A stretch of 64,000 bases of DNA from the NCBI GenBank assembly GCA_963716735.1, contig OY970321.1, positions 2,210,021 through 2,274,020 on the forward strand, given 5' to 3'. Below are positions 1,405 to 64,000 of this stretch, piece by piece. The notes beneath the pieces are model-generated. The model saw nothing but the letters and a program-made list of their open reading frames with translations. It was not told the DNA's origin and searched no databases. The translations under genes were made by a program, and so were the position numbers. Position 1 is the stretch's first letter. The number at the start of each line of letters is the position of its first letter. Source of the DNA: an uncultured Solirubrobacterales bacterium (GTDB lineage: Bacteria; Actinomycetota; Thermoleophilia; Solirubrobacterales; 70-9).

Positions 1405-2478
1405 ATGCCGACCGCGATAGTCACTGGCTCGGGGGGCCTGATCGGCTCAGAGTCCGTCCGCCGTTTCATCGAGGCCGGTTGGGACATCGTCGGGATCGAG
1501 AACGACATGCGTGCTCGCTTCTTCGGCGAGGAGGCCTCGACCGCGCACGTGACCGAGGGACTGCGCGAGGGCTATGCCGAGTTCCGCTCGCTCGACCTCG
1601 ACATCCGCGACGCCGAGGGCATCAATCGCGCCTTCGCCGATCTGGGGGGCAAGCTCGATGCCGTCATCCACACCGCCGCCCAGCCTTCGCACGACTGGGC
1701 GGCCCGGGAGCCGCAGACCGACTTCGGCGTCAACGCGCTCGGCACGCTCAACCTGCTCGAGGCGGCGCGCGAGCACGCCCCGGACGTGCCCTTCATCTTC
1801 TGCTCGACCAACAAGGTCTACGGCGACACGCCCAACCGCCTGCCGCTGGAAGAGCTCGAGAAGCGGCTCGAACTGCCCGAGTCCCACCCCTTCCACAAGG
1901 GCATCGACACCTCGATGTCGATCGACCGTTCGACCCACTCGCTCTTCGGCGTCTCCAAGGCGGCGGCCGACCTGCTCGTGCAGGAGTACGGCCGCTACTT
2001 CGACATGCCGACCGTCTGCTTCCGCGGCGGCTGCCTGACCGGCCCCCAGCACGCCGGCGCCCAGCTGCACGGCTTCCTCGCCTACCTGATGAAGTGCACG
2101 GTCACCGGCACCCCCTACACCGTCTTCGGCTACGGCGGCAAGCAGGTCCGCGACAACATCCACAGCGCCGACCTGGTCGCCTGCTTCCAGTCCTTCCAGC
2201 GCGCCCCCCGCGCCGGCGCCGTCTACAACATGGGTGGCGGGCGCCGCAGCAACTGCTCGATGCTCGAGGCGATCGACGTCTGCGAGCGGATCAGCGACCG
2301 CAAGCTGCAGTGGGAGCTGAGCGACGAGAATCGCATCGGCGACCACCGCTGGTGGATCTCCGACGTTTCAGACTTCGCCGCCGACTACCCCGACTGGCAG
2401 CCGCGCTACGGCATCGACGAGATCCTCCAGGAGATGTACGAGCAGAACGTCGAGCGCTGGATGGCGACCGCGGGCTGA
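1405..2478 (+). CDS. NAD-dependent epimerase/dehydratase-like SDR (second, divergent paralog; catalytic Tyr position is Phe)
   Basis: In-frame ATG at 1405 ([16 protein letters not shown]). The upstream part of ORF 1093-2478 is antisense to the neighbouring gene. TGSGGLIG Rossmann motif and [13 protein letters not shown] are present. The YxxxK position reads FGVSK (codons 1945-1959). Confidence 0.85.
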
Positions 2479-2480
2479 AG

Positions 2481-4148
2481 CTAGCCGGCTTCGCGACCGA
2501 GGCCGCAGACCGTCGCCGGGCCGCCTTCGAGCTGCATCTTCCAGGGGACGGTGGAGAGGTCGCGGGGGATCGGCAGCGCCAGTGCTTCGCCGGCGCCGAC
2601 GCCCGTCTGGAAGTCGACCGGGAACTGCCTCCCCGTCGCGAACCGCCTCATCCTGATGTCGGTCACCGGTTTCGCGCCGGCGGCGATCGCGACACCGCCG
2701 GGCGGGACCTCGAACACGCGGGAGCCGGCGACGGCGAAGCACCCGTCGCTCGGTACCGCCGAGCGGGGGATCGGTTCGACCGCGATCCGCAGGGCGTTGA
2801 GCAGCACCTTGTCGGCGGCGAAGCGTGCGGGCTCCGGACTGCTCTGCAGCTCTGGGACGGTGAAGGCAGGAGAACCAAATGCGTCCACCGCGGAGAAATA
2901 GGAGCCGGCGTCGATGTGGTCGAAATTCGTATCGGCGAATTCCTCGTCGAGGTAGAAGCCCGGTTCGACCGTGTTCCTGGCGATCTCCAGTGCAGTCAGG
3001 TTCGCTTCGATGATCTGGCTGGTCCTCCGGTAGAAGTCATAGGACTGCTGGATGAGGAGTCCATTGCCGGCGAGCGAGACGGCGACGGCGATCAGCGCTG
3101 GAGGCAATAGGCGCCGGTCGAGCTTCAGGCCACTCAGCATTCCGGCGGCGACGAGCAAGACCATCGCCGCGCCGGGGTACTGGTAGCGGCTCGCCCACGG
3201 CACCCGGCCCGGCTTGACCGCGATCCCGCCGAAGACCCAGAACGCGATCGCGATCGCGATGACGACCCAGAGTGAGCGCGGGATGCGTTCGAGTTTGTAG
3301 AGGCGCCATGCCGCGAGCGCCCCGAGGCCGACGGCAAGCGGGCGCCCCCAGTCGAGGCCCGGCGGCGAGGGCAGGCCTTCGCCCATGGTCGCCAGGCCGG
3401 CCAGCGCTCCGCTCGCGGTGGCGAATGAGTCGAGCGCGAATATGGGCGCGGTAGCGATGTTGTGCAGTGTCACCGAGCTTTGGCCGCTGTTCCCCCAGCC
3501 GAGCCACCAGATCCCGTAGAGGACGACCGGCACCGCGACGACGAAGGCGCGCCGCCGCCAATCGCGGTCGGTCCGGCGCAGGACCACGTCCACGATGGCG
3601 CCGACGGCGAAGGCGAGCCAGAGGCTGGAGAAGAGCATCGCGCCGACCAGCCAGGCGCAGGCGAGGCGGTCGCCGACGCTGTCTCGCCGGTCGAGGGCCA
3701 CGAGCATGCCGAGGCCACAGGCCATCGAGCCGAGAAAGGTGATCGAGGCGAACCAGAAGAGGTCTTCGAAGGCTGCGCCGAGGAAGAGGATGGGCAGCGT
3801 CATCAGCAGGGCGCCCCAGCCGCCGATCCGGCGCCTGATCCAGACGAAGAGGAACCAGGCGCCGAGCAGGAGCATGGCGGTCGAGGCGATGCGGAAGGGC
3901 ACCAACGATCCCATGCCGAAGCCGGACAGCAAGAGCTTCCAGATCACGACCGCGCCGCCGACAAGGTGCTCGTTGGCCGGCGTCAGGAAGGCGTCGGCGT
4001 TGAAGTCGCGCCGGTAGAGGATGTAGGTCCAGTCGTCGAGGATGAAGGTCAGCCTCGAGCCGAGGACGACGATCACGACCCCGGCCACGAGCATCGCCGC
4101 CGCGAGCAGCAGCGACGCTGGGTTCTTCAGTCGGATTGCCCCGCCCAC
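2481..4148 (-). CDS. Polytopic membrane protein, possible GT-C-type (lipid-linked-sugar-dependent) glycosyltransferase
   Basis: 555-aa ORF with many hydrophobic segments in the N-terminal ~370 aa and a soluble C-terminal domain. An FILDDWTY motif follows the first TM, and an ALDRR motif comes later; both recur in the 26973-28727 protein. The start is GTG 4148; an alternative is ATG 4094 (MLVAGVV). Confidence 0.7.
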   Translation of the reverse strand: MGGAIRLKNPASLLLAAAMLVAGVVIVVLGSRLTFILDDWTYILYRRDFNADAFLTPANEHLVGGAVVIWKLLLSGFGMGSLVPFRIASTAMLLLGAWFLFVWIRRRIGGWGALLMTLPILFLGAAFEDLFWFASITFLGSMACGLGMLVALDRRDSVGDRLACAWLVGAMLFSSLWLAFAVGAIVDVVLRRTDRDWRRRAFVVAVPVVLYGIWWLGWGNSGQSSVTLHNIATAPIFALDSFATASGALAGLATMGEGLPSPPGLDWGRPLAVGLGALAAWRLYKLERIPRSLWVVIAIAIAFWVFGGIAVKPGRVPWASRYQYPGAAMVLLVAAGMLSGLKLDRRLLPPALIAVAVSLAGNGLLIQQSYDFYRRTSQIIEANLTALEIARNTVEPGFYLDEEFADTNFDHIDAGSYFSAVDAFGSPAFTVPELQSSPEPARFAADKVLLNALRIAVEPIPRSAVPSDGCFAVAGSRVFEVPPGGVAIAAGAKPVTDIRMRRFATGRQFPVDFQTGVGAGEALALPIPRDLSTVPWKMQLEGGPATVCGLGREAG

Positions 4149-9482: not shown

Positions 9483-11254
9483 CGTCTCCCCAGCGGCGCG
9501 GTCGCCCGGTAGACCCGTTCGCGCCAGGCGGCCGGCACGTAGTCGGCCAGCTGTTGGGCGAAACCCGGGTTGAAGTAGGGGTCGCCGCGCATCAGCTCGT
9601 CATACCAGCAGTCGACGAAGAGAGCGCGGTCGACGGCGTCGGTGGCGGCGCGGCGGCCGGCGGGGGTGCGGTGGTTGACGAGACGCGGCCGCGGGGCGTA
9701 GACGGACTTGAGGCCGCGCTTGGCGAACCGCTGGCATAGGTCGTAGTCCTCGTACTCGCGGCCGTAGAACTCGTTGAAGCCGTTCTCGGCCTCGAAGTCG
9801 ACCCTGCGCACCAGCAGGCACTCGGCGCCGAGTGCCGAGACCTCGCGGGCGCAGGGGAGGGAGCCGTAGTAGCCGTCGCCATCGGCAGGGAAGCCGGCCA
9901 GCATCGCGCTCGCCGGGTCGCGGAGGCCGATGGCCACACCCGCCTGGTCGACCAGGCCGTCGGGCTTGGCCAGCAGCGGGCCGACGGCGCCCACGCCCGG
10001 CAGGCCGGCGTGGAGGACGAGCTGCTCGATCCAGTCGGGCTCGGCCACCTCGACCTCTTCGTCGAGGAAGAGCAGATAGTCGCCTCCGGCCGCGGCGGCG
10101 CCGACGTTGTTGGCGCGGCCGCGGCGGAAGGCACCGGGCTCGCCGGCGATCCAGGTCACCGCCTCGGGGAGCCAGGCCGGCGCCTCCTCGCCACGCCCGA
10201 TGACGATCGTCTCGAAGCTCGGATACGAGGTCAGCTCGAGCAGCGAGGTGAGGCAGCGCCGCAGGCCTCCCTCGCCGCCCCCTGTGGCGAGGACGACGCT
10301 GGCCTTGGCCTGGGGCACGGCGCCGTTGCGCGGCGCCAGGATCGCTCGGTGGGGGATCGCCGGGTGGGGGACGGCCTTGGCCTCGACGCCGAGCCGCTCG
10401 AGGTGATCGCTCACCGCCCTTGCCTGCAGCTCCTCAACCCCCGACTTCTGGTCGGTGCCGGCGGCGATGCTGCCGGGTATCGCCCGCCAGTGGTAGAGCG
10501 TCTGCGGGATGTGGTGGATGCGCTCGGTGCGCTCGGAGACGCGCAGGAAGAACTCGAAGTCCTGGATCGTGTCGAAGGCGGGGTCGAAACCGCCGGCCGC
10601 CTCGGCGAGCGAGCGCCGGACCACCAGCAGGTGGCCGATGTACATCGCGCCGAGAGCGTAGACCGGCGACCAGTCGGGCTTGAGGAAGGGGTCGGCGCGG
10701 ACGCCGTGCGCAGTCAGCTTGTCGGAATCGGAGTAGACGACGTCGAGCTCGGGATCGGCGGTGAGCGCTTGGGCGACACGCAGCAGCGCGTCGGGCGTGA
10801 GCGTGTCGTCATGGTCGAGGAAGCCGACGAACTCGCCGTCGCACATCTCCATGGCGGCGTTGGTCGCCGCCGAGATGCCGCGGTTCTCGGCGGCCGGCTC
10901 GAACTTGATCCGCGGGTCGGCGTCGGCGTAGCGCTGGACCGCCGCGTTCAGCCCAGGCTGGCCGGAGCCGTCGTCGACGATGCACAGCTGCCACGCCGGG
11001 TAGTGCTGGGCTCGCACCGACTCGATCGCCTTGGCCAGATAGCCCAGGTCGGACTTGTAGGTCGGCATCGCCAGTGAGATCGTCGGTTGCGACTCGAGCG
11101 CCGCGACTTCCTGCAGGGCGGCTTCGCGCTTGGCCCGGGGTCGGCTGAGGTGAAGTTCCTGTCGCAGGCGGCGGGTCAGGTCCCTGAGGCGGCGCAGGAA
11201 GGCGAAGGCGCGCGGGGGGAGAAGCGATTTGAGCGAGCGGATATCGCGTGGCAT
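9479..11254 (-). CDS. Two-domain glycosyltransferase family 2 (tandem GT2 modules, rhamnosyltransferase-like)
   Basis: Module 1: ISLAMPTYKSDLGYLAKAIESVRAQHYPAWQLCIVDDGS...FLDHDD. Module 2: ASVVLATGGGEGGLRRCLTSLL...YLLFLDEEV. It lies in the same reading frame as the upstream 76-aa ORF, separated by a TGA and one codon. Confidence 0.85.
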   Translation of the reverse strand: MPRDIRSLKSLLPPRAFAFLRRLRDLTRRLRQELHLSRPRAKREAALQEVAALESQPTISLAMPTYKSDLGYLAKAIESVRAQHYPAWQLCIVDDGSGQPGLNAAVQRYADADPRIKFEPAAENRGISAATNAAMEMCDGEFVGFLDHDDTLTPDALLRVAQALTADPELDVVYSDSDKLTAHGVRADPFLKPDWSPVYALGAMYIGHLLVVRRSLAEAAGGFDPAFDTIQDFEFFLRVSERTERIHHIPQTLYHWRAIPGSIAAGTDQKSGVEELQARAVSDHLERLGVEAKAVPHPAIPHRAILAPRNGAVPQAKASVVLATGGGEGGLRRCLTSLLELTSYPSFETIVIGRGEEAPAWLPEAVTWIAGEPGAFRRGRANNVGAAAAGGDYLLFLDEEVEVAEPDWIEQLVLHAGLPGVGAVGPLLAKPDGLVDQAGVAIGLRDPASAMLAGFPADGDGYYGSLPCAREVSALGAECLLVRRVDFEAENGFNEFYGREYEDYDLCQRFAKRGLKSVYAPRPRLVNHRTPAGRRAATDAVDRALFVDCWYDELMRGDPYFNPGFAQQLADYVPAAWRERVYRATAPLGRR

Positions 11255-38850: not shown

Positions 38851-41800
38851 TTGAGCACTCGCCCGAAAGCACGCGTGAAATCTGACCCGCTGGCGCCGTT
38901 CAGCGCTCCGGTCAGGCGCTGGTTCGAGTCGTCCTTCGAGGGGCCGACGCCTGCCCAGGCGGGCGGTTGGGAGGCGATCGCCGGTGGCGCCAACTCGCTG
39001 ATCTGCGCCCCGACCGGCTCCGGCAAGACCTTGGCCGCCTTCCTCTGGGGCATCGACAAGCTCTCCCGGTCACCGGCGCTGGGGCAGGGCGTCAAGGTCG
39101 TCTACGTCTCGCCGCTGAAGGCGCTCTCCTACGACATCGAGCGCAACCTGCGCGCGCCGCTGCGGGGGATCGGGGCCGACATCTCCGTCGGCCTGCGCAC
39201 GGGTGACACCAGCCAGAAAGACCGCCGGGCGATGCGCAAAACGCCGCCCGACATCCTCATCACCACCCCCGAGTCGCTCTACCTGATGCTCTCCTCGGGC
39301 GCCCGCGAGATCCTCACCGGGGTCGAGGCGGTGATCGTCGACGAGATTCATGCGGTGGCCCAGTCCAAGCGGGGGTCGCACCTGGCGTTGACTTTGGAGC
39401 GGTTGGACCATCTGGTGAAGGACCATGCGGGTTCGGCCGCGGGTCCTGTCACGGGGGAGGGGGTGTCCGGGTCTGGGCTGGGTTTTTCGCCTGCTGAGGA
39501 TGCTCCCCTCGCTGAGTCGGATGGGCGAAAAAGAGGACGCCGCCCTGCCCCGGACACCCCCTCCCCCGTGACACCCGCGGGAGGGGCGCAGGGGGTTCAG
39601 CGGATCGGGCTGAGCGCCACCCAGCGGCCGCTTGAGCGGATCGCGAAGTTCCTGGTCGGTCCTAAGAGAGCTTGCGAGATTGTGGATGCGGGGGTGGCTA
39701 AGGAGCTGGACCTCGAGATCGTCGTTCCGGTTGAGGACATGTCGGAACCGGGGGCTCCTAATTTCCCCAACAGCGAGGGCGTTCCCAATGAGGGCGAGCC
39801 CCTGGCCCACGTCCGTTCGATCTGGCCCGCGATCTACCCCGAGCTCCTCAAGCTGGTCAAAGAACACAACTCGACGATCATCTTCGTCAACGCCCGTCGA
39901 GCAGCTGAGCGCCTGGCAAAGCGCCTCAATGAGCTTGCGGCCGAAGAACCGGAGCGTGAGCTACCAGCCACCGAGCAGGTGGGGCACTCCCCTTCCGCGG
40001 GTGGCGTGGGGGATGGGGGGGTCGAGGACGCCCCCGCCCGCAGCGCCCCCCCATCCCCCGCGACAGGACCCGCGGTTGACGGAAATGAGCCCTTGGTGGA
40101 GATCGCCAGGGCGCACCACGGGTCCCTGTCGCACGAAGAGCGCCTTGTGGTCGAGGAGATGCTCAAGTCGGGCCAGCTTCCCTGCCTGGTCGCGACCTCG
40201 TCGCTGGAGTTGGGCATCGACATGGGCGCCGTCGACCTCGTGATCCAGGTCGAGTCGCCGAAGTCGGTCAGCCGCGGGCTGCAACGGGTCGGCCGCGCCG
40301 GTCACTCGCTGGGCGAGGTCTCGCGCGGCCGCATCTTCCCCAAGTTCCGCGCCGACCTGCTCGAGTGCGCCGTCGTCGCGCGGCGGATGCGCGAAGGCGC
40401 GATCGAGGAGACGGTGATCCCGCAGAACCCGCTCGACGTGCTCGCCCAGCACCTGGTCTCGATGGCCGCGTTGGACGAGTGGGAGATCGACGAGGTCGAG
40501 CGCCTCGTCACCGCCACCCAGCCCTTCGGCGAGCTCTCGCGCGAACAGCTGGAGAACGTGCTCGACATGCTCGACGGTCGTTACCCGTCCGACCGCTTCG
40601 CCGAGCTGCGACCGCGGATCGTCTGGGACCGCACCCGCGGCACGATGCACGGCCGCAAAGGTTCCCGCCAGCTCGTCGTCACCAACGCCGGCACGATCCC
40701 CGACCGCGGCCTCTACGGCGTCCACCTGCCCGACGGCCGCCGCGTCGGCGAGCTCGACGAGGAGATGGTCTACGAGGCTCGGGCCGGGCAGACCTTCCTG
40801 CTGGGCGCGACGACCTGGCGGATCGAGGAGATCACCCGCGACCGGGTCATCGTCACGCCCGCGCCCGGCCTGCCGGGGGCGGTGCCGTTCTGGAAGGGCG
40901 ATGGGATCGGCCGCCCGGCCGAGCTGGGGCGGGCGATCGGCGCCTTCTCTCGCGAGGCGGTCTCGCGCGAGCCAAAGGAATTGGCCGCCGAGTACGACCT
41001 CGACCGCCGCGCCGCCGAGAACCTCGTCGCCTATCTGCGCGAGCAGCAGGCGGCCACCCGGGTCGTCCCTTCCGATGAGACGATCGTAGTCGAGCGCTTC
41101 CGCGACGAGATCGGCGACTGGCGCCTCTGCATCCTCTCCCCCTTCGGCGGCCGCGTCCACTCCGCCTGGGGCCTCGCTCTGGGCCAGAAGATCCGCGAGG
41201 AGCACGAGCTGGAGGCGGACGCGATCTGGTCCGACGACGGCATCGTCATCCACCTGCCCGACGCCGACGAGCCGCCGTCCGCCGACCTGGTCATGGTCGA
41301 TCCCGACGAGCTCGAGGACCTGGTCGTGCGCGAGCTCTCCGGCTCGGCCCTGTTCGGCGCCCGCTTCCGCGAGAACGCCTCGCGGTCGCTGCTGATCCCG
41401 CGCGCCTACCCCGGCAAGCGCACGCCGCTCTGGCAGCAGCGCCTCAAGTCACAGAGCCTGCTCGAAGTCGCCCGCGACTTCCCCCGCTTCCCGGTCATCC
41501 TCGAGACCTACCGCGAGTGCCTGCGCGACGTCCTCGACCTGCCCTCGCTGCGCCAGATCCTCACCGACCTGCACTCGCGCAAGCTCGGTCTGGTCGAGGT
41601 CGAGACGCCGACCGCGTCGCCCTTCGCCTCCTCGCTGCTCTTCGACTTCGTCGCCACCTACATGTACGAGGGGGACACGCCGAACGCCGAGCGCCGCGCC
41701 GCCGCGCTCTCCCTCGACCGCGACCTGCTGCGCGAGCTGCTCGGCCAGGAGGAGCTGCGTGAGCTGATCGACCCCGAGGCGCTGGTCGAGGTCGAGGCAC

Positions 41801-55371: not shown

Positions 55372-56532
55372 GTGACTACCGCCACTGATTCCGGGGTCTA
55401 CGAGATCCCGCAGGAGTCGCGCGACCTGCGCGACATGGTGCGCCAGTTGGCGCAGGAGAAGATCGCGCCGCGCGCCGGTGAGATCGATCGCGAGGGCAAG
55501 TACCCGTGGGACGTGAGGCAGCGGCTCGCCGAACACGACATCCTCGGCCTGCCCTTCGAGGAGAAGTACGGGGGTACCGGCACCGGCACGCTGGTCCTGC
55601 AGATGGCGGTCGAGGAGATCGCCAAGGCCTGCGCCTCCTCCGCGCTGATCCTGATGATCCAGGAGCTGGGCACGCTGCCGATCCAGCTCTTCGGCTCCGA
55701 TGAGCTGAAACAGCGCTTCCTGCCAAAGTGCGCCAGCGGCGAGTGGTCGCCCGCCTTTGCGCTGTCGGAGCCGGAGGCCGGCAGCGACCCGGCCTCGATG
55801 CGGACCACCGCCGTCCGCGATGGCGACGAGTGGGTGATCAACGGCCAGAAGAACTGGATAACCAACGCCTCGATCGCCGACTTCTACATCGTCTTCGCCG
55901 TCACCGACCGCGAGAACAGGCGGATGAGCGCCTTCGTGGTCGAGAAAGAGCGCGAGGGCTTCGACCCGGGCCAGCTCGAGCACAAGCTCGGGATCAAGGG
56001 CTCGCCGACCGGCTCACCCTCGTTCACCGACGTCCGCGTCCCCAACGAGAACATGGTCGGGGCCGAGGGCAAGGGGCTGAGCGTCGCGCTCGGCACCCTC
56101 GAGCGCACCCGCCTCGGTGCCGCCGCGCAGGCGGTGGGGATCGCCCAGGGGGCCACCGACTACGCCAACCAGTACTCCAAGGAACGCATCGCCTTCGGCA
56201 AGCCGATCAACAACCTGCAGGGGATCCAGTTCAAGCTCGCCGACATGGAGACCGGGACCGCCGCCGCGCGCGAGCTCCTCTACAAAGCCTGCTCGATGGC
56301 CGACAAGCCCGAGCGCCCTGCCGACCTCGGCAAGTGGACCTCGATGGCCAAGCTCTTCGCCTCCGACAACGCGATGAAGGTCACGGTCGAGGCGATCCAG
56401 GTGCTCGGCGGCTACGGCTACGTCAACGAGTACCCGGTCGAGCGCATGCTGCGCGACGCCAAGATCACCCAGATCTACGAGGGCACCAACGAGATCCAGC
56501 GGGTCGTGATCGCCCGCGCGATGGGCGCTTAG
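55372..56532 (+). CDS. Acyl-CoA dehydrogenase (short/branched-chain type)
   Basis: 386 aa. FALSEPEAGSDPASMRTTA, QKNWITNA, and the C-terminal YEGTNEIQRVVIAR motif. Confidence 0.9.
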   Translation: MTTATDSGVYEIPQESRDLRDMVRQLAQEKIAPRAGEIDREGKYPWDVRQRLAEHDILGLPFEEKYGGTGTGTLVLQMAVEEIAKACASSALILMIQELGTLPIQLFGSDELKQRFLPKCASGEWSPAFALSEPEAGSDPASMRTTAVRDGDEWVINGQKNWITNASIADFYIVFAVTDRENRRMSAFVVEKEREGFDPGQLEHKLGIKGSPTGSPSFTDVRVPNENMVGAEGKGLSVALGTLERTRLGAAAQAVGIAQGATDYANQYSKERIAFGKPINNLQGIQFKLADMETGTAAARELLYKACSMADKPERPADLGKWTSMAKLFASDNAMKVTVEAIQVLGGYGYVNEYPVERMLRDAKITQIYEGTNEIQRVVIARAMGA

Positions 56533-56696
56533 GAGGGTCTAGCGAAACCCCCGCACGCGTCTGGCGGCGGCGGACACGGCGCGGTGCGGCGTCCTCGGTC
56601 GGCCAAATAGCGCTGCTATTCGGCCTCCCTGCGTCCTTGCCCCGCTTGGTCCGGCGCTCGCCAGGCCGCATACGCGAGTTTCGCTAGACCCTCCTA
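56530..56696. repeat. 167-bp palindromic intergenic element with perfect 19-bp termini
   Basis: taggagggtctagcgaaac (56530-56548) equals the reverse complement of gtttcgctagaccctccta (56678-56696). The interior is also an imperfect palindrome with a central hairpin ggccaaatagc/gctattcggcc. The TAG stops of both convergent genes lie in the arms. Confidence 0.85.
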
Positions 56697-57839
56697 GGCC
56701 ATCGGCAGCGGGGTGCCGCTGACCGGGGGCGCTTCGGCCGGGGCCGGGGTCGCCTGTAGGACCGGCAGCTCCTGAGGCGTGGCGGCGATGATGCCGCGGG
56801 CGGCCTGGCGGATCGCCTGCGAGGCCGGTGAGTCGGGTTCCTCGATGGAGAGCGGGGAGCCGTTGTCGGCGTGCTCGCGCAGCGGCTCGGAGAGGGGAAC
56901 CTTGCCGAGCAGCGGGATGTCGAGCTCGTCGGCGAGGAGCTGACCGCCACCCTCGCCGAAGATCGTGAAGCGCTCGCCGTCGGGCGTGGTGAAGCCGGAC
57001 ATGTTCTCGATCACGCCGAGCAGCTCGAGGTCGAACTTGACCGCCATGTCGGCGGCCCGTTTCGCCACGGTCTGCGCCGCCGGTTGCGGCGTGGTGACGA
57101 TCGCGAACTTGGCCTGTGGCAGGAGCTGGGAAAGCGTCATCGAGACGTCGCCGGTTCCGGGCGGCAAGTCCAGCAGCAGGTACTCCAGCTCACCCCAGGC
57201 GACGTCCTCGAGGAACTGCTGGATCGCCTTGTGCAGCATCGGGCCGCGCCAGACCACCGCCGAGTTCTCCTCGACGAAGAAGCCGATCGACATCACCTTG
57301 ACCCCGCCCGCCCCCACCAGCGGCAGGATCTTGCGCTCGCCGTTGACCTCGGGTTTGTGGTTGACGCCGAGCATGCGCGGCATCGAGTAGCCGTAGACGT
57401 CGCAGTCGAGGGCGCCGGCCGAGTGGCCTTCGGCGGTCAGCGCCGCGGCCAGGTTGGCCGTCATCGTCGACTTGCCGACGCCGCCCTTGCCGGAGGCGAC
57501 GCAGATCACGTTCTTCACCTGGGCCAGTGCGCCCTCCGGCAGCTTGCTGCGGCCGAGGGTCTGCTGCAGGTTGCCTTTCTCGTCCTCGGAGAGGACGTCG
57601 AAGCCGACCGCGACCGCGGTCACCCCGTCCAGCTGGGATACCTGCTGGGCGACCGCCTGTTCGAAATGGGAGCGGATCGGGCAGCCGGCGGTGGTCAGTG
57701 AGACGACGACCTCGACTCGACCGTCGTCCTTGATCTCGATCGAGCGGACCATGCCCAGCTCGACGATCGAGCGACGCAGCTCGGGATCGATGACGGCGCG
57801 CAGCTTCTCGGTGACCTGATCTTCGCTCGGAAGGGGCAT
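56694..57839 (-). CDS. apbC: Fe-S cluster carrier ATPase Mrp/ApbC/NBP35 family (N-terminal DUF59-like domain)
   Basis: ATG 57839. VTEKLRAVIDPELRRSIVELGMV, VASGKGGVGKST, LLLDLPPGTGD. The upstream 377 codons of ORF 56694-58970 are antisense to the next gene. Confidence 0.88.
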   Translation of the reverse strand: MPLPSEDQVTEKLRAVIDPELRRSIVELGMVRSIEIKDDGRVEVVVSLTTAGCPIRSHFEQAVAQQVSQLDGVTAVAVGFDVLSEDEKGNLQQTLGRSKLPEGALAQVKNVICVASGKGGVGKSTMTANLAAALTAEGHSAGALDCDVYGYSMPRMLGVNHKPEVNGERKILPLVGAGGVKVMSIGFFVEENSAVVWRGPMLHKAIQQFLEDVAWGELEYLLLDLPPGTGDVSMTLSQLLPQAKFAIVTTPQPAAQTVAKRAADMAVKFDLELLGVIENMSGFTTPDGERFTIFGEGGGQLLADELDIPLLGKVPLSEPLREHADNGSPLSIEEPDSPASQAIRQAARGIIAATPQELPVLQATPAPAEAPPVSGTPLPMA

Positions 57840-63933: not shown

Positions 63934-64000
63934 CGGAGGGGGTGGGATTCGAACCCACGAGACACCCGAAGGCATCTAACGGCTTTCAAGGCCGCCGCAT
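63934..64000 (-). tRNA. tRNA-Ser (anticodon UGA), 3' two-thirds; 5' part lies beyond the window
   Basis: Reverse complement reads ...GCGGC-CUUGAAA-GCCGU (anticodon loop, UGA). A long variable arm follows (GAUGCC-UUCG-GGUGUC), then T arm GUGGG-UUCGAAU-CCCAC, acceptor CCCCUCC and discriminator G. No encoded CCA. Confidence 0.85.

Follow-up and report, generated by a model that had tools for sequence, protein, structure and literature searches.

Hairpin-forming repeats of Solirubrobacterales and a copy carried in frame by the helicase gene lhr

We analyzed a 64,000-nt stretch of DNA from an uncultured Solirubrobacterales bacterium (contig OY970321.1 of assembly GCA_963716735.1, positions 2,210,021 to 2,274,020), referred to here as the window, in which the gene for the large helicase-related protein Lhr contains a long palindrome. 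This palindrome is part of a larger hairpin, element E1, that is translated together with lhr. [quoted passage not shown] The family to which E1 belongs apparently consists of previously undescribed hairpin-forming repeats of Solirubrobacterales. Rfam returned nothing above threshold for the repeat, just sub-threshold matches to generic microRNA hairpins, and a search of one literature library found no report tying Solirubrobacter, Conexibacter or Thermoleophilia to palindromic repeats. Searching a protein database with the 52-aa E1 peptide, a short and repetitive query for which one candidate was collected, gave no match.

Results

E1 forms a long hairpin in frame within lhr

On sequence grounds, the product of the host gene is an Lhr helicase with a DExH core, Lhr winged-helix domains and a DEAD_assoc domain. 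Pfam identified DEAD, Helicase_C, WH_Lhr, DEAD_assoc and WH2/3/4_Lhr in the open reading frame (ORF), with E-values from 1e-14 to 1e-59, and the ORF matched the solved M. smegmatis Lhr (5V9X, 7LHL) at E = 1e-131. E1 lies in frame between motif II (DEIH) and motif III (SAT) and encodes the peptide AAGPVTGEGVSGSGLGFSPAEDAPLAESDGRKRGRRPAPDTPSPVTPAG, at approximately residues 196-244. An earlier note on this DNA described Lhr proteins as having only a short linker between the DExH box and the SAT motif; the alignment agrees, as residues 190-248 of the window protein (59 residues) stand opposite just 3 residues of 5V9X.

The perfect 25-nt arms described in that note are indeed exact reverse complements, and the full element extends beyond them (Table 1). 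The arms can be prolonged to 37 nt at 89% complementarity, and an outer stem formed by CCGCGGGT and ACCCGCGG closes the hairpin to the full E1 interval. E1 carries two different ends, which we call alpha and beta, and its arms are perfect because a GCC to GAC change in the beta end, relative to the family consensus, removes the mismatch that is usual in the family.

Chance does not account for the inverted repeat of E1. When the window was dinucleotide-shuffled 100 times, two or more matches never arose and the pair did not appear. The E1 hairpin has 34 matched positions, and no hairpin exceeded 19 in 10 block shuffles. The RNA folding energy, a check that the earlier note had proposed, is -97.7 kcal/mol for the E1 interval versus -65.8 +/- 4.1 kcal/mol for shuffles (z = -7.8), with nearly the whole interval in a single hairpin; a further E1 fold reached -107.8 kcal/mol.

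E1 also differs from its host gene in composition. GC content at codon positions 1, 2 and 3 is 0.78, 0.74 and 0.63 in E1, versus 0.75, 0.49 and 0.91 in the rest of lhr, and a third-position value (GC3) as low as that of E1 occurs in just 0.07% of equal-sized lhr windows. The spacer between the arms had looked less GC-rich than its flanks by eye; for overall GC this holds weakly (0.68 versus 0.66-0.75), and the real difference lies in GC by codon position. Across positions 39391-40110 of the window, from E1 through a second element, E2, and including the DNA between them, GC3 is lowered to 0.67-0.77; elsewhere in lhr it is 0.90-0.98. The two elements lie inverted around this segment. The 6-bp palindrome CCGCGG, the SacII recognition sequence, is present at both ends of each element (39437-39442, 39575-39580, 39995-40000 and 40070-40075).

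Table 1. Positions of lhr and of the hairpin elements within the window (L numbers denote loci collected in the searches described below)
Feature	Coordinates	Strand	Basis
lhr, large helicase-related protein, 1569 aa	38851-43560	+	ORF list, Pfam and PDB match; TTG start provisional
E1, full hairpin repeat, 144 nt (48 codons), subfamily type A with alpha/beta ends	39437-39580	+	sequence, folds, alignment to copies in L001, L094, L228, L173 and L142
E1 alpha terminus CCGCGGGTCCTGTCACGG, conserved family-wide	39437-39454	+	exact match to pattern CSGCGGGTCCTGTCRYGG
E1 left perfect 25-nt arm TGTCACGGGGGAGGGGGTGTCCGGG	39447-39471	+	sequence
Type-A core, left half GCTGGGTTTTTCGCC	39477-39491	+	sole match within the window
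Type-A core, right half GGGCGAAAAAGAGGACGCCGC, contains GGACGCCGC	39523-39543	+	60-copy alignment
E1 right perfect 25-nt arm, exact reverse complement of 39447-39471	39549-39573	+	sequence
E1 beta-type terminus CCCCGTGACACCCGCGG; family consensus CCRYGCCACCCGCGG	39563-39580	+	comparison with 105 alpha/beta elements and orthologous copies
E2, short alpha/beta hairpin, 81 nt (27 codons)	39995-40075	+	inverted-repeat scan of the window, sequence

E2 is related to E1 and lies 420 bp downstream of it. The inverted repeat described in the earlier note stands as given there, and this second related hairpin had been missed. The inverted-repeat scan placed the E2 arms at 40002-40021 and 40046-40065. 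E2 has its beta end on the left and its alpha end on the right (the alpha motif is on the minus strand at 40058-40073), and is thus inverted relative to E1. When reverse-complemented it opens with CCGCGGGTCCTGTCGCGGGGGATGGGG, where E1 opens with CCGCGGGTCCTGTCACGGGGGAGGGGG, so that the two elements have an end motif in common. The E2-encoded peptide, SAGGVGDGGVEDAPARSAPPSPATGPA (approximately residues 382-409), falls in a RecA2 loop after ELPATEQ. The E2 interior is 94% identical to that of the element in L111 and 87% identical to that in L122 (in a membrane protein).

E1 and E2 belong to a dispersed family with conserved, asymmetric ends

Copies were collected by one scan of a genome collection with the alpha motif CSGCGGGTCCTGTCRYGG, which returned at least 119 stretches, and by one metagenome scan with the E1 inner core (GCTGGGTTYYTCGCC N20-45 GGGCGARRAA), which returned at least 120. 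The earlier note had suggested that the absence of related copies would count against a mobile origin; related copies, E2 among them, are abundant. Approximately 70% of the alpha stretches listed (at least 119) derive from metagenome-assembled genomes (MAGs) of Solirubrobacterales/Thermoleophilia, and several are from Acidimicrobiia.

The alpha end, CCGCGGGTCCTGTCRYGG, and the beta end, CCRYGCCACCCGCGG (CCRYGCCACCC), form an asymmetric pair common to E1 and E2. When both ends were required, 106 strict elements were found in 1.02 Mb of collected DNA, compared with none in reversed-sequence controls, and 105 of the 106 had alpha at one end and beta at the other. The paired ends, CCGCGGGT/ACCCGCGG plus TGTCRYGG/CCRYGCCA (105/106 elements), are terminal inverted repeats whose pairing leaves a conserved CC bulge and one mismatch. 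Elements range from 64 to 144 nt, contain no transposase ORF and are found in both orientations; the strict elements have a length of 3n+1, from GGGT to ACCC, in 65 of 106 cases. Element length preserves the frame of the host gene, as with the 144 and 81 nt of E1 and E2. The longest subfamily, type A, has a strongly conserved core (GCTGGGTTTTTCGCC ... GGGCGAAAAACAGGACGCCGC), within which GGACGCCGC was invariant in 60 of 60 aligned copies, though it was absent from the search pattern.

Single chromosomes can hold several copies, as in OY969802.1 (L032, L057 and two in L118), and a second strict-motif element was present in 30 of approximately 240 loci. These counts suggest, as a rough estimate, tens of copies per genome. 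Short alpha/beta elements (60-64 nt) occur in several copies in Acidimicrobiia MAGs, namely in L006, L021 and L098 (CATQHS010000001.1), in L034, L084 and L090 (OZ241886.1), and in L043 and L075, with slightly different outer flanks (CCGGCCGGC...CCGGCC). Because of these multiple Acidimicrobiia copies, the family extends beyond Thermoleophilia.

Copies reside in housekeeping proteins and between genes

Approximately half of the alpha/beta copies lie in long ORFs, where the parts of housekeeping proteins that they occupy are linkers, tails or loops. In an E2/Kgd protein, translation and Pfam place the element in a linker (lipoyl-[insert]-E3_binding), and Pfam places other in-frame copies between domain III and DnaX_C of DnaX and in the tails of NusA and ribosomal protein S1. 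A 143-nt type-A copy resembling E1 is present in the S5 ribosomal protein, at its tail, and in NuoC the Complex1_30kDa match is cut in two by the element. Clustering of the flanking ORFs identified Lhr, ParA, Kgd, Mfd and two membrane proteins as hosts with recurrent sites. In L190, a 730-aa ORF (1642-3834, plus strand) runs across two type-A copies (1902-2041 and 3224-3362), and may encode a protein with two in-frame copies.

The reading frame of the elements was also assessed independently of gene calls. Two frames, each encoding small residues (AGPV...TPPA or AGGV...TGPA), accounted for 26% and 21% of elements, with at least 60 open codons on each side; the remaining frames accounted for 6-9% each, except for one at 23% that may be partly an antisense shadow. 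A strict GC3 cut-off for intragenic copies gave a count of 7, which is a floor, as a true lhr copy in L015 failed it at GC3 0.75. Other copies are found 2-40 nt past stop codons or directly upstream of genes. Type-A copies that lack alpha/beta ends are mostly non-coding in appearance, with 75 of 119 not in frame.

Two sites in lhr are hotspots occupied by different hairpins

The ortholog alignment that the earlier note had called for, with 120 Lhr proteins, identified the positions of both E1 (site 1) and E2 (site 2) as hypervariable insertion hotspots. The site-1 linker, measured from LERL to QRIGLS, spans 8-65 aa with a median of 17; it is 64 aa in the window protein, at most 16 aa in 55 of 118 orthologs and at least 30 aa in 36 of 118. 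Occupied sites encode at least three unrelated peptide types (A, B and C) across orthologs. In the DNA of three Lhr orthologs, all inserts at both sites are near-perfect hairpins with stem sequences that differ from one another. The nearest Lhr proteins are from Solirubrobacterales MAGs, and among the matches listed the nearest relative at the DNA level is the metagenome contig L228, with an lhr approximately 88% identical. The type-A insert is retained within an Lhr clade (the window protein, P0001, P0060, L228, L173 and L142). Distant orthologs and many close ones have no insert, and filled and empty sites are interspersed among close relatives. Protein-level conservation of the insert in distant Lhr orthologs, which the earlier note had named as a finding that would speak against a mobile element, was thus not seen.

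Other irregularities were noted in lhr sequences from this collection. At site 1 of L003 (approximately 10500-10700), the peptide GASADKQRG is tandemly duplicated beside a type-C hairpin, which suggests slippage or duplication inside inserts. In the ENA assembly of L001 (10001-14638), the ORF calls break lhr into three consecutive pieces of 639, 587 and 218 aa; this probably reflects frameshift errors or a pseudogene, with no relation to the hairpins. Many MAG contigs stop within lhr at approximately residues 860-900 (P0003, P0005, P0010, P0013, P0019, P0023, P0027, P0036, P0046, P0049 and others). A third element at these breaks was considered and rejected, as the ends of L002 and L003 are conserved DEAD_assoc coding region and contain no repeat. 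The contig ends probably result from assembly-graph collapse among co-occurring strains.

Stems covary, and constraint acts on the DNA

In a 60-copy alignment, 96.6% of consensus-structure cells were paired, compared with 88.2% in shuffles, and there were 113 double (compensatory) changes versus 38.7; these observed values were reached in none of 500 shuffles. The covariation score was 0.244, compared with 0.05-0.13 when the pairing partner was slid sideways. Type-A copies occupy site 1 in the window, L228, L001, L142 and L173. Identity among the Lhr proteins of these lineages is 73-89%, which makes E1 an old resident and not a recent insertion. Between these orthologous copies the changes are again compensatory, with both arms altered together.

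Interior sequences follow subfamily rather than location. Identity within one subfamily, across genes and genomes, is 81-100%, and falls to 33-38% when different subfamilies at one and the same lhr site are compared. The most extreme case is a pair of 82-nt elements from different assemblies, one at lhr site 1 (L002 10594-10675, GCA_036376775.1) and the other in a membrane protein (L104 3456-3537, CAWGOE010000004.1), with interiors that are 100% identical. This pattern points to transfer from locus to locus, by copying or conversion via the ends that the elements share, and not to divergence in place. In L142, 138-nt type-A copies are present at both lhr sites in opposite orientation (2913-3050, plus strand; 3477-3614, minus strand). 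The two differ at 4 of 138 positions, in a compensatory manner, and constitute a large inverted duplication within one gene. At site 2 of both L142 and L236 the element is read in reverse and yields an unrelated peptide. The constraint on the element is at the level of DNA, not of protein.

The encoded segments are predicted to be disordered

An AlphaFold2 model of Lhr, built with 59 orthologs in the alignment, had a mean pLDDT of 70. Residues 203-245 (E1) and 376-410 (E2) scored below 50 and had no secondary structure, and their flanks scored above 90. The model is consistent with both segments being tolerated as disordered surface loops, and we infer that E1 is a passenger in Lhr rather than a new functional module. 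The suggestion in the earlier note of a MITE/REP-like element tolerated as a surface loop, with Rickettsia as precedent, is thus supported by hundreds of related copies, by in-frame copies in housekeeping proteins, by the Lhr orthologs that lack the insert and by this predicted disorder.

Discussion

Our preferred explanation for E1 is that of a selfish repeat that persists where its host proteins can accommodate it. Elements of 60-150 nt share the alpha and beta ends, and their interior stems vary by subfamily yet stay paired. Such elements may spread or be re-templated as nucleic-acid hairpins, the route being either transposition in trans or gene conversion via the conserved ends. Selection would then purge insertions outside permissive disordered segments and benign frames. 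In Lhr the permissive places would be the motif II-III linker of RecA1 and the RecA2 loop, and the encoded peptide would travel as a passenger that leaves the helicase core unaffected.

Several results weigh against this explanation. A search of the 64-kb window for further copies, degenerate ones included, found none besides E1 and E2. No transposase or REP-associated tyrosine transposase (RAYT) was found among the 25 most recurrent neighbor gene clusters or between 10 element pairs, in a non-exhaustive search covering approximately 1.9 Mb of flanking DNA; the genes between paired elements were ordinary ones (DNA ligase, NuoD, LepA, UbiA, Rrf2 and others). Any target-site duplication was indistinguishable from the palindromic GC ends: a GC dinucleotide lies on both sides of 75 of 103 elements, and is both palindromic itself and continuous with the stem. 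For this reason we infer mobility rather than demonstrate it. The E1 stem is actively maintained, presumably by selection or by conversion, and a neutral passenger alone falls short of accounting for it. Very strong conservation over many species, as seen in the type-A core, could reflect a host-useful function instead of a selfish one. Finally, the assignment of many copies as coding or intergenic relied on ORF openness and GC3 rather than curated annotation and is approximate.

A rival explanation is that the family is a host-beneficial structured module, whose RNA hairpins would stabilize mRNA, pause ribosomes or punctuate operons, or whose DNA would bind a nucleoid or topology factor; in-frame copies would then mark places where a protein tolerates the module. 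Roles of this type have been ascribed to REPs (Di Nocera 2013, PMC3733652), positions 2-40 nt beyond a stop codon or just upstream of a gene are common among the copies, and the invariance of GGACGCCGC across many metagenomes, the stems kept by covariation, the persistence of orthologous copies with intact stems across lineages and the lack of a transposase among recurrent neighbors or between element pairs would all fit. However, the mixture of filled and empty orthologous sites among close relatives argues against a required function at any single site, and a recognition site for a transposase or nuclease equally predicts a conserved core and covarying stems. The core was also considered as an intrinsic terminator and rejected, as on both strands the inner stem has the T-run before it and the A-run after it. 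We regard a beneficial module as unlikely, though it deserves to be kept in mind.

The remaining alternatives treat E1 as peculiar to Lhr or to this locus. Selection on the protein, with a functional disordered linker or interaction motif and an incidental palindrome, would agree with an insert that is in frame, retained in an Lhr clade and rich in Gly, Pro, Ser and Arg like many linkers. But orthologs have unrelated peptides or nothing at the site, the reversed copies at site 2 yield unrelated peptides, and the same DNA is found in unrelated proteins and in intergenic DNA; the low GC3 of E1 (0.63 versus 0.91) shows no codon adaptation, and the joint change of both arms is not predicted. This alternative is largely refuted and highly improbable. 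The other possibility raised in the earlier note was a hairpin with a regulatory role within lhr; on this view an RNA or DNA structure specific to lhr would control the expression of the gene, perhaps as a substrate of the encoded helicase. A very stable hairpin with G-run arms inside a helicase gene invites the idea, as do the presence of two hairpins in one gene and the orthologs that often have hairpins at both sites. The distribution of the family disfavors it: lhr holds just 3 of approximately 119 alpha stretches listed and just 6 of 129 type-A core matches listed, the same element and similar recurrent sites are found in unrelated housekeeping genes, and the linker is short in 55 of 118 orthologs, with stem sequences that vary among those carrying inserts. 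We give a hairpin specific to lhr hardly any weight. Least probable, and independent of any repeat family, is formation of the palindrome in situ by a template-switch (quasi-palindrome) mutation that arose in an unconstrained loop. The arms are perfect over 25 nt and the loop is hypervariable and indel-prone, as that process would have it, but hundreds of copies elsewhere match E1 in their ends and core, and orthologous copies exist in related genomes. Template switching is refuted as the origin of E1; within the hairpin it is a possible means of keeping the arms identical.

There is a broader proposal, to which we give slightly less than an even chance. The elements may represent an undescribed superfamily of 'protein-coding palindromes' in free-living Actinomycetota, in which hairpin-specific machinery copies or converts exchangeable interiors between fixed permissive sites in the essential genes lhr, dnaX, nusA, rpsA, rpsE, kgd, nuoC and parA. 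The same loop would thus receive different cassettes in different lineages, and with this family the Rickettsia phenomenon would have originated a second time, independently. Were this true, the mechanism and cost of translated selfish DNA would be open to study in abundant soil organisms. The family has further consequences apart from this proposal. For annotation, low-complexity inserts of the AGPV...TPPA type in Solirubrobacterales proteins are repeat-derived and not lineage-specific domains. For protein evolution, the elements provide a natural insertion scan for permissive loops in Lhr, DnaX, NuoC and other proteins. For the biology of mobile DNA, comparison of the many copies of a transposase-less hairpin element could expose its mechanism.

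Other repeats and features of the window

An unrelated second palindrome lies at 56527-56699, with GCTTAGGAGGGTCTAGCGAAACCCCCGCA arms of 29-33 nt around a loop of approximately 110 nt, and starts where the ORF upstream of it has its stop codon. In L001 (9750-9915) a related copy lies directly upstream of lhr, and no further copies were found in the approximately 1.9 Mb examined. By its appearance it represents a further REP/MITE-like family that lies between genes in these genomes. The window also contains an inverted repeat at 2582-2742, with 24-nt arms (88%) and a 113-nt loop, and a partial tRNA at its end (63934-64000, minus strand; Rfam RF00005, 29.5 bits).

Comparison with known palindromic repeats

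RPEs are palindromic repeats, some of which lie in frame in coding genes (Ogata et al. 2000 Science 290:347; Ogata et al. 2002 Genome Res 12:808, as cited in PMC10969869). The E1 family works in the same manner: both consist of palindromes of approximately 100-150 bp in several sequence families, dispersed in coding and non-coding DNA, with a subset in frame in unrelated housekeeping genes whose ORFs run through the insert. In both, insertion fits the protein fold (here according to the AlphaFold2 prediction), and neither has a known transposase or mobility mechanism. We compare the two by description and do not class the E1 family as a member; no sequence relationship is expected. RPE hosts are AT-rich, obligate intracellular Alphaproteobacteria, whereas the E1 family occurs in free-living soil Actinomycetota of approximately 70% GC; translated palindromes would have arisen independently in a high-GC, soil-dominant actinobacterial order. 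The share of copies within ORFs appears much higher, at roughly half for the alpha/beta subfamilies versus 85 of 728 RPE copies in a census of R. felis (PMC1166351). The E1 family further differs in its conserved asymmetric ends with their bulge and mismatch, its interchangeable interiors and the occupation of the same protein site by different subfamilies in different lineages. Several of its features are sharper than in Rickettsia: the ends, the strong covariation of the stems, the core shared across species and the loops of essential proteins that have been re-occupied repeatedly by different subfamilies.

REPs resemble the E1 family as GC-rich palindromes with some copies inside ORFs. REPs lie mostly downstream of genes; in the E1 family many copies are found shortly after stop codons, and roughly half of the alpha/beta copies are in long ORFs by approximate gene calls. 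Intragenic GTAG/CGTC REPs in DNA replication and repair genes and in helicases have been argued to be neutral, in flexible linkers or loops, and were described from a few Proteobacteria and Opitutus terrae in a survey that does not mention Actinobacteria (Di Nocera, De Gregorio & Rocco 2013, PMC3733652). Head-to-head REPs also fold into larger hairpins, and CGTC REPs likewise have no dedicated transposase. REPs measure only 20-40 bp, however, and their stems 5-13 bp; the E1-family elements are single hairpins of 64-144 nt and so fall outside that size range. REPs are tagged by GTAG or CGTC and associated with RAYTs, whereas the E1 family has no consistent GTAG tag and no RAYT was seen among recurrent neighbors or between element pairs. 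GTAG is at the left end of just 3 of 91 non-alpha type-A copies, by a tracing of the outer stem that is noisy, and the alpha end contains TGTC, or CGTC in a few copies, which is a resemblance to the CGTC tag and nothing further.

Bacterial MITEs such as Correia, ERIC and Nezha (reviewed in PMC10969869) share with the E1 family their small size, the absence of a transposase gene, inverted-repeat ends, a dispersed hairpin form and occasional in-frame ORF fusions. Classical MITEs have terminal inverted repeats around a non-palindromic interior, target-site duplications and a parent insertion sequence (IS); E1-family elements are hairpins throughout and show no distinguishable target-site duplication, and the search of neighboring genes turned up no parent IS. 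Because its behavior is RPE/REP-like while its size and the lack of a RAYT in the DNA searched set it apart from REPs, we consider the E1 family a new family of a known kind.

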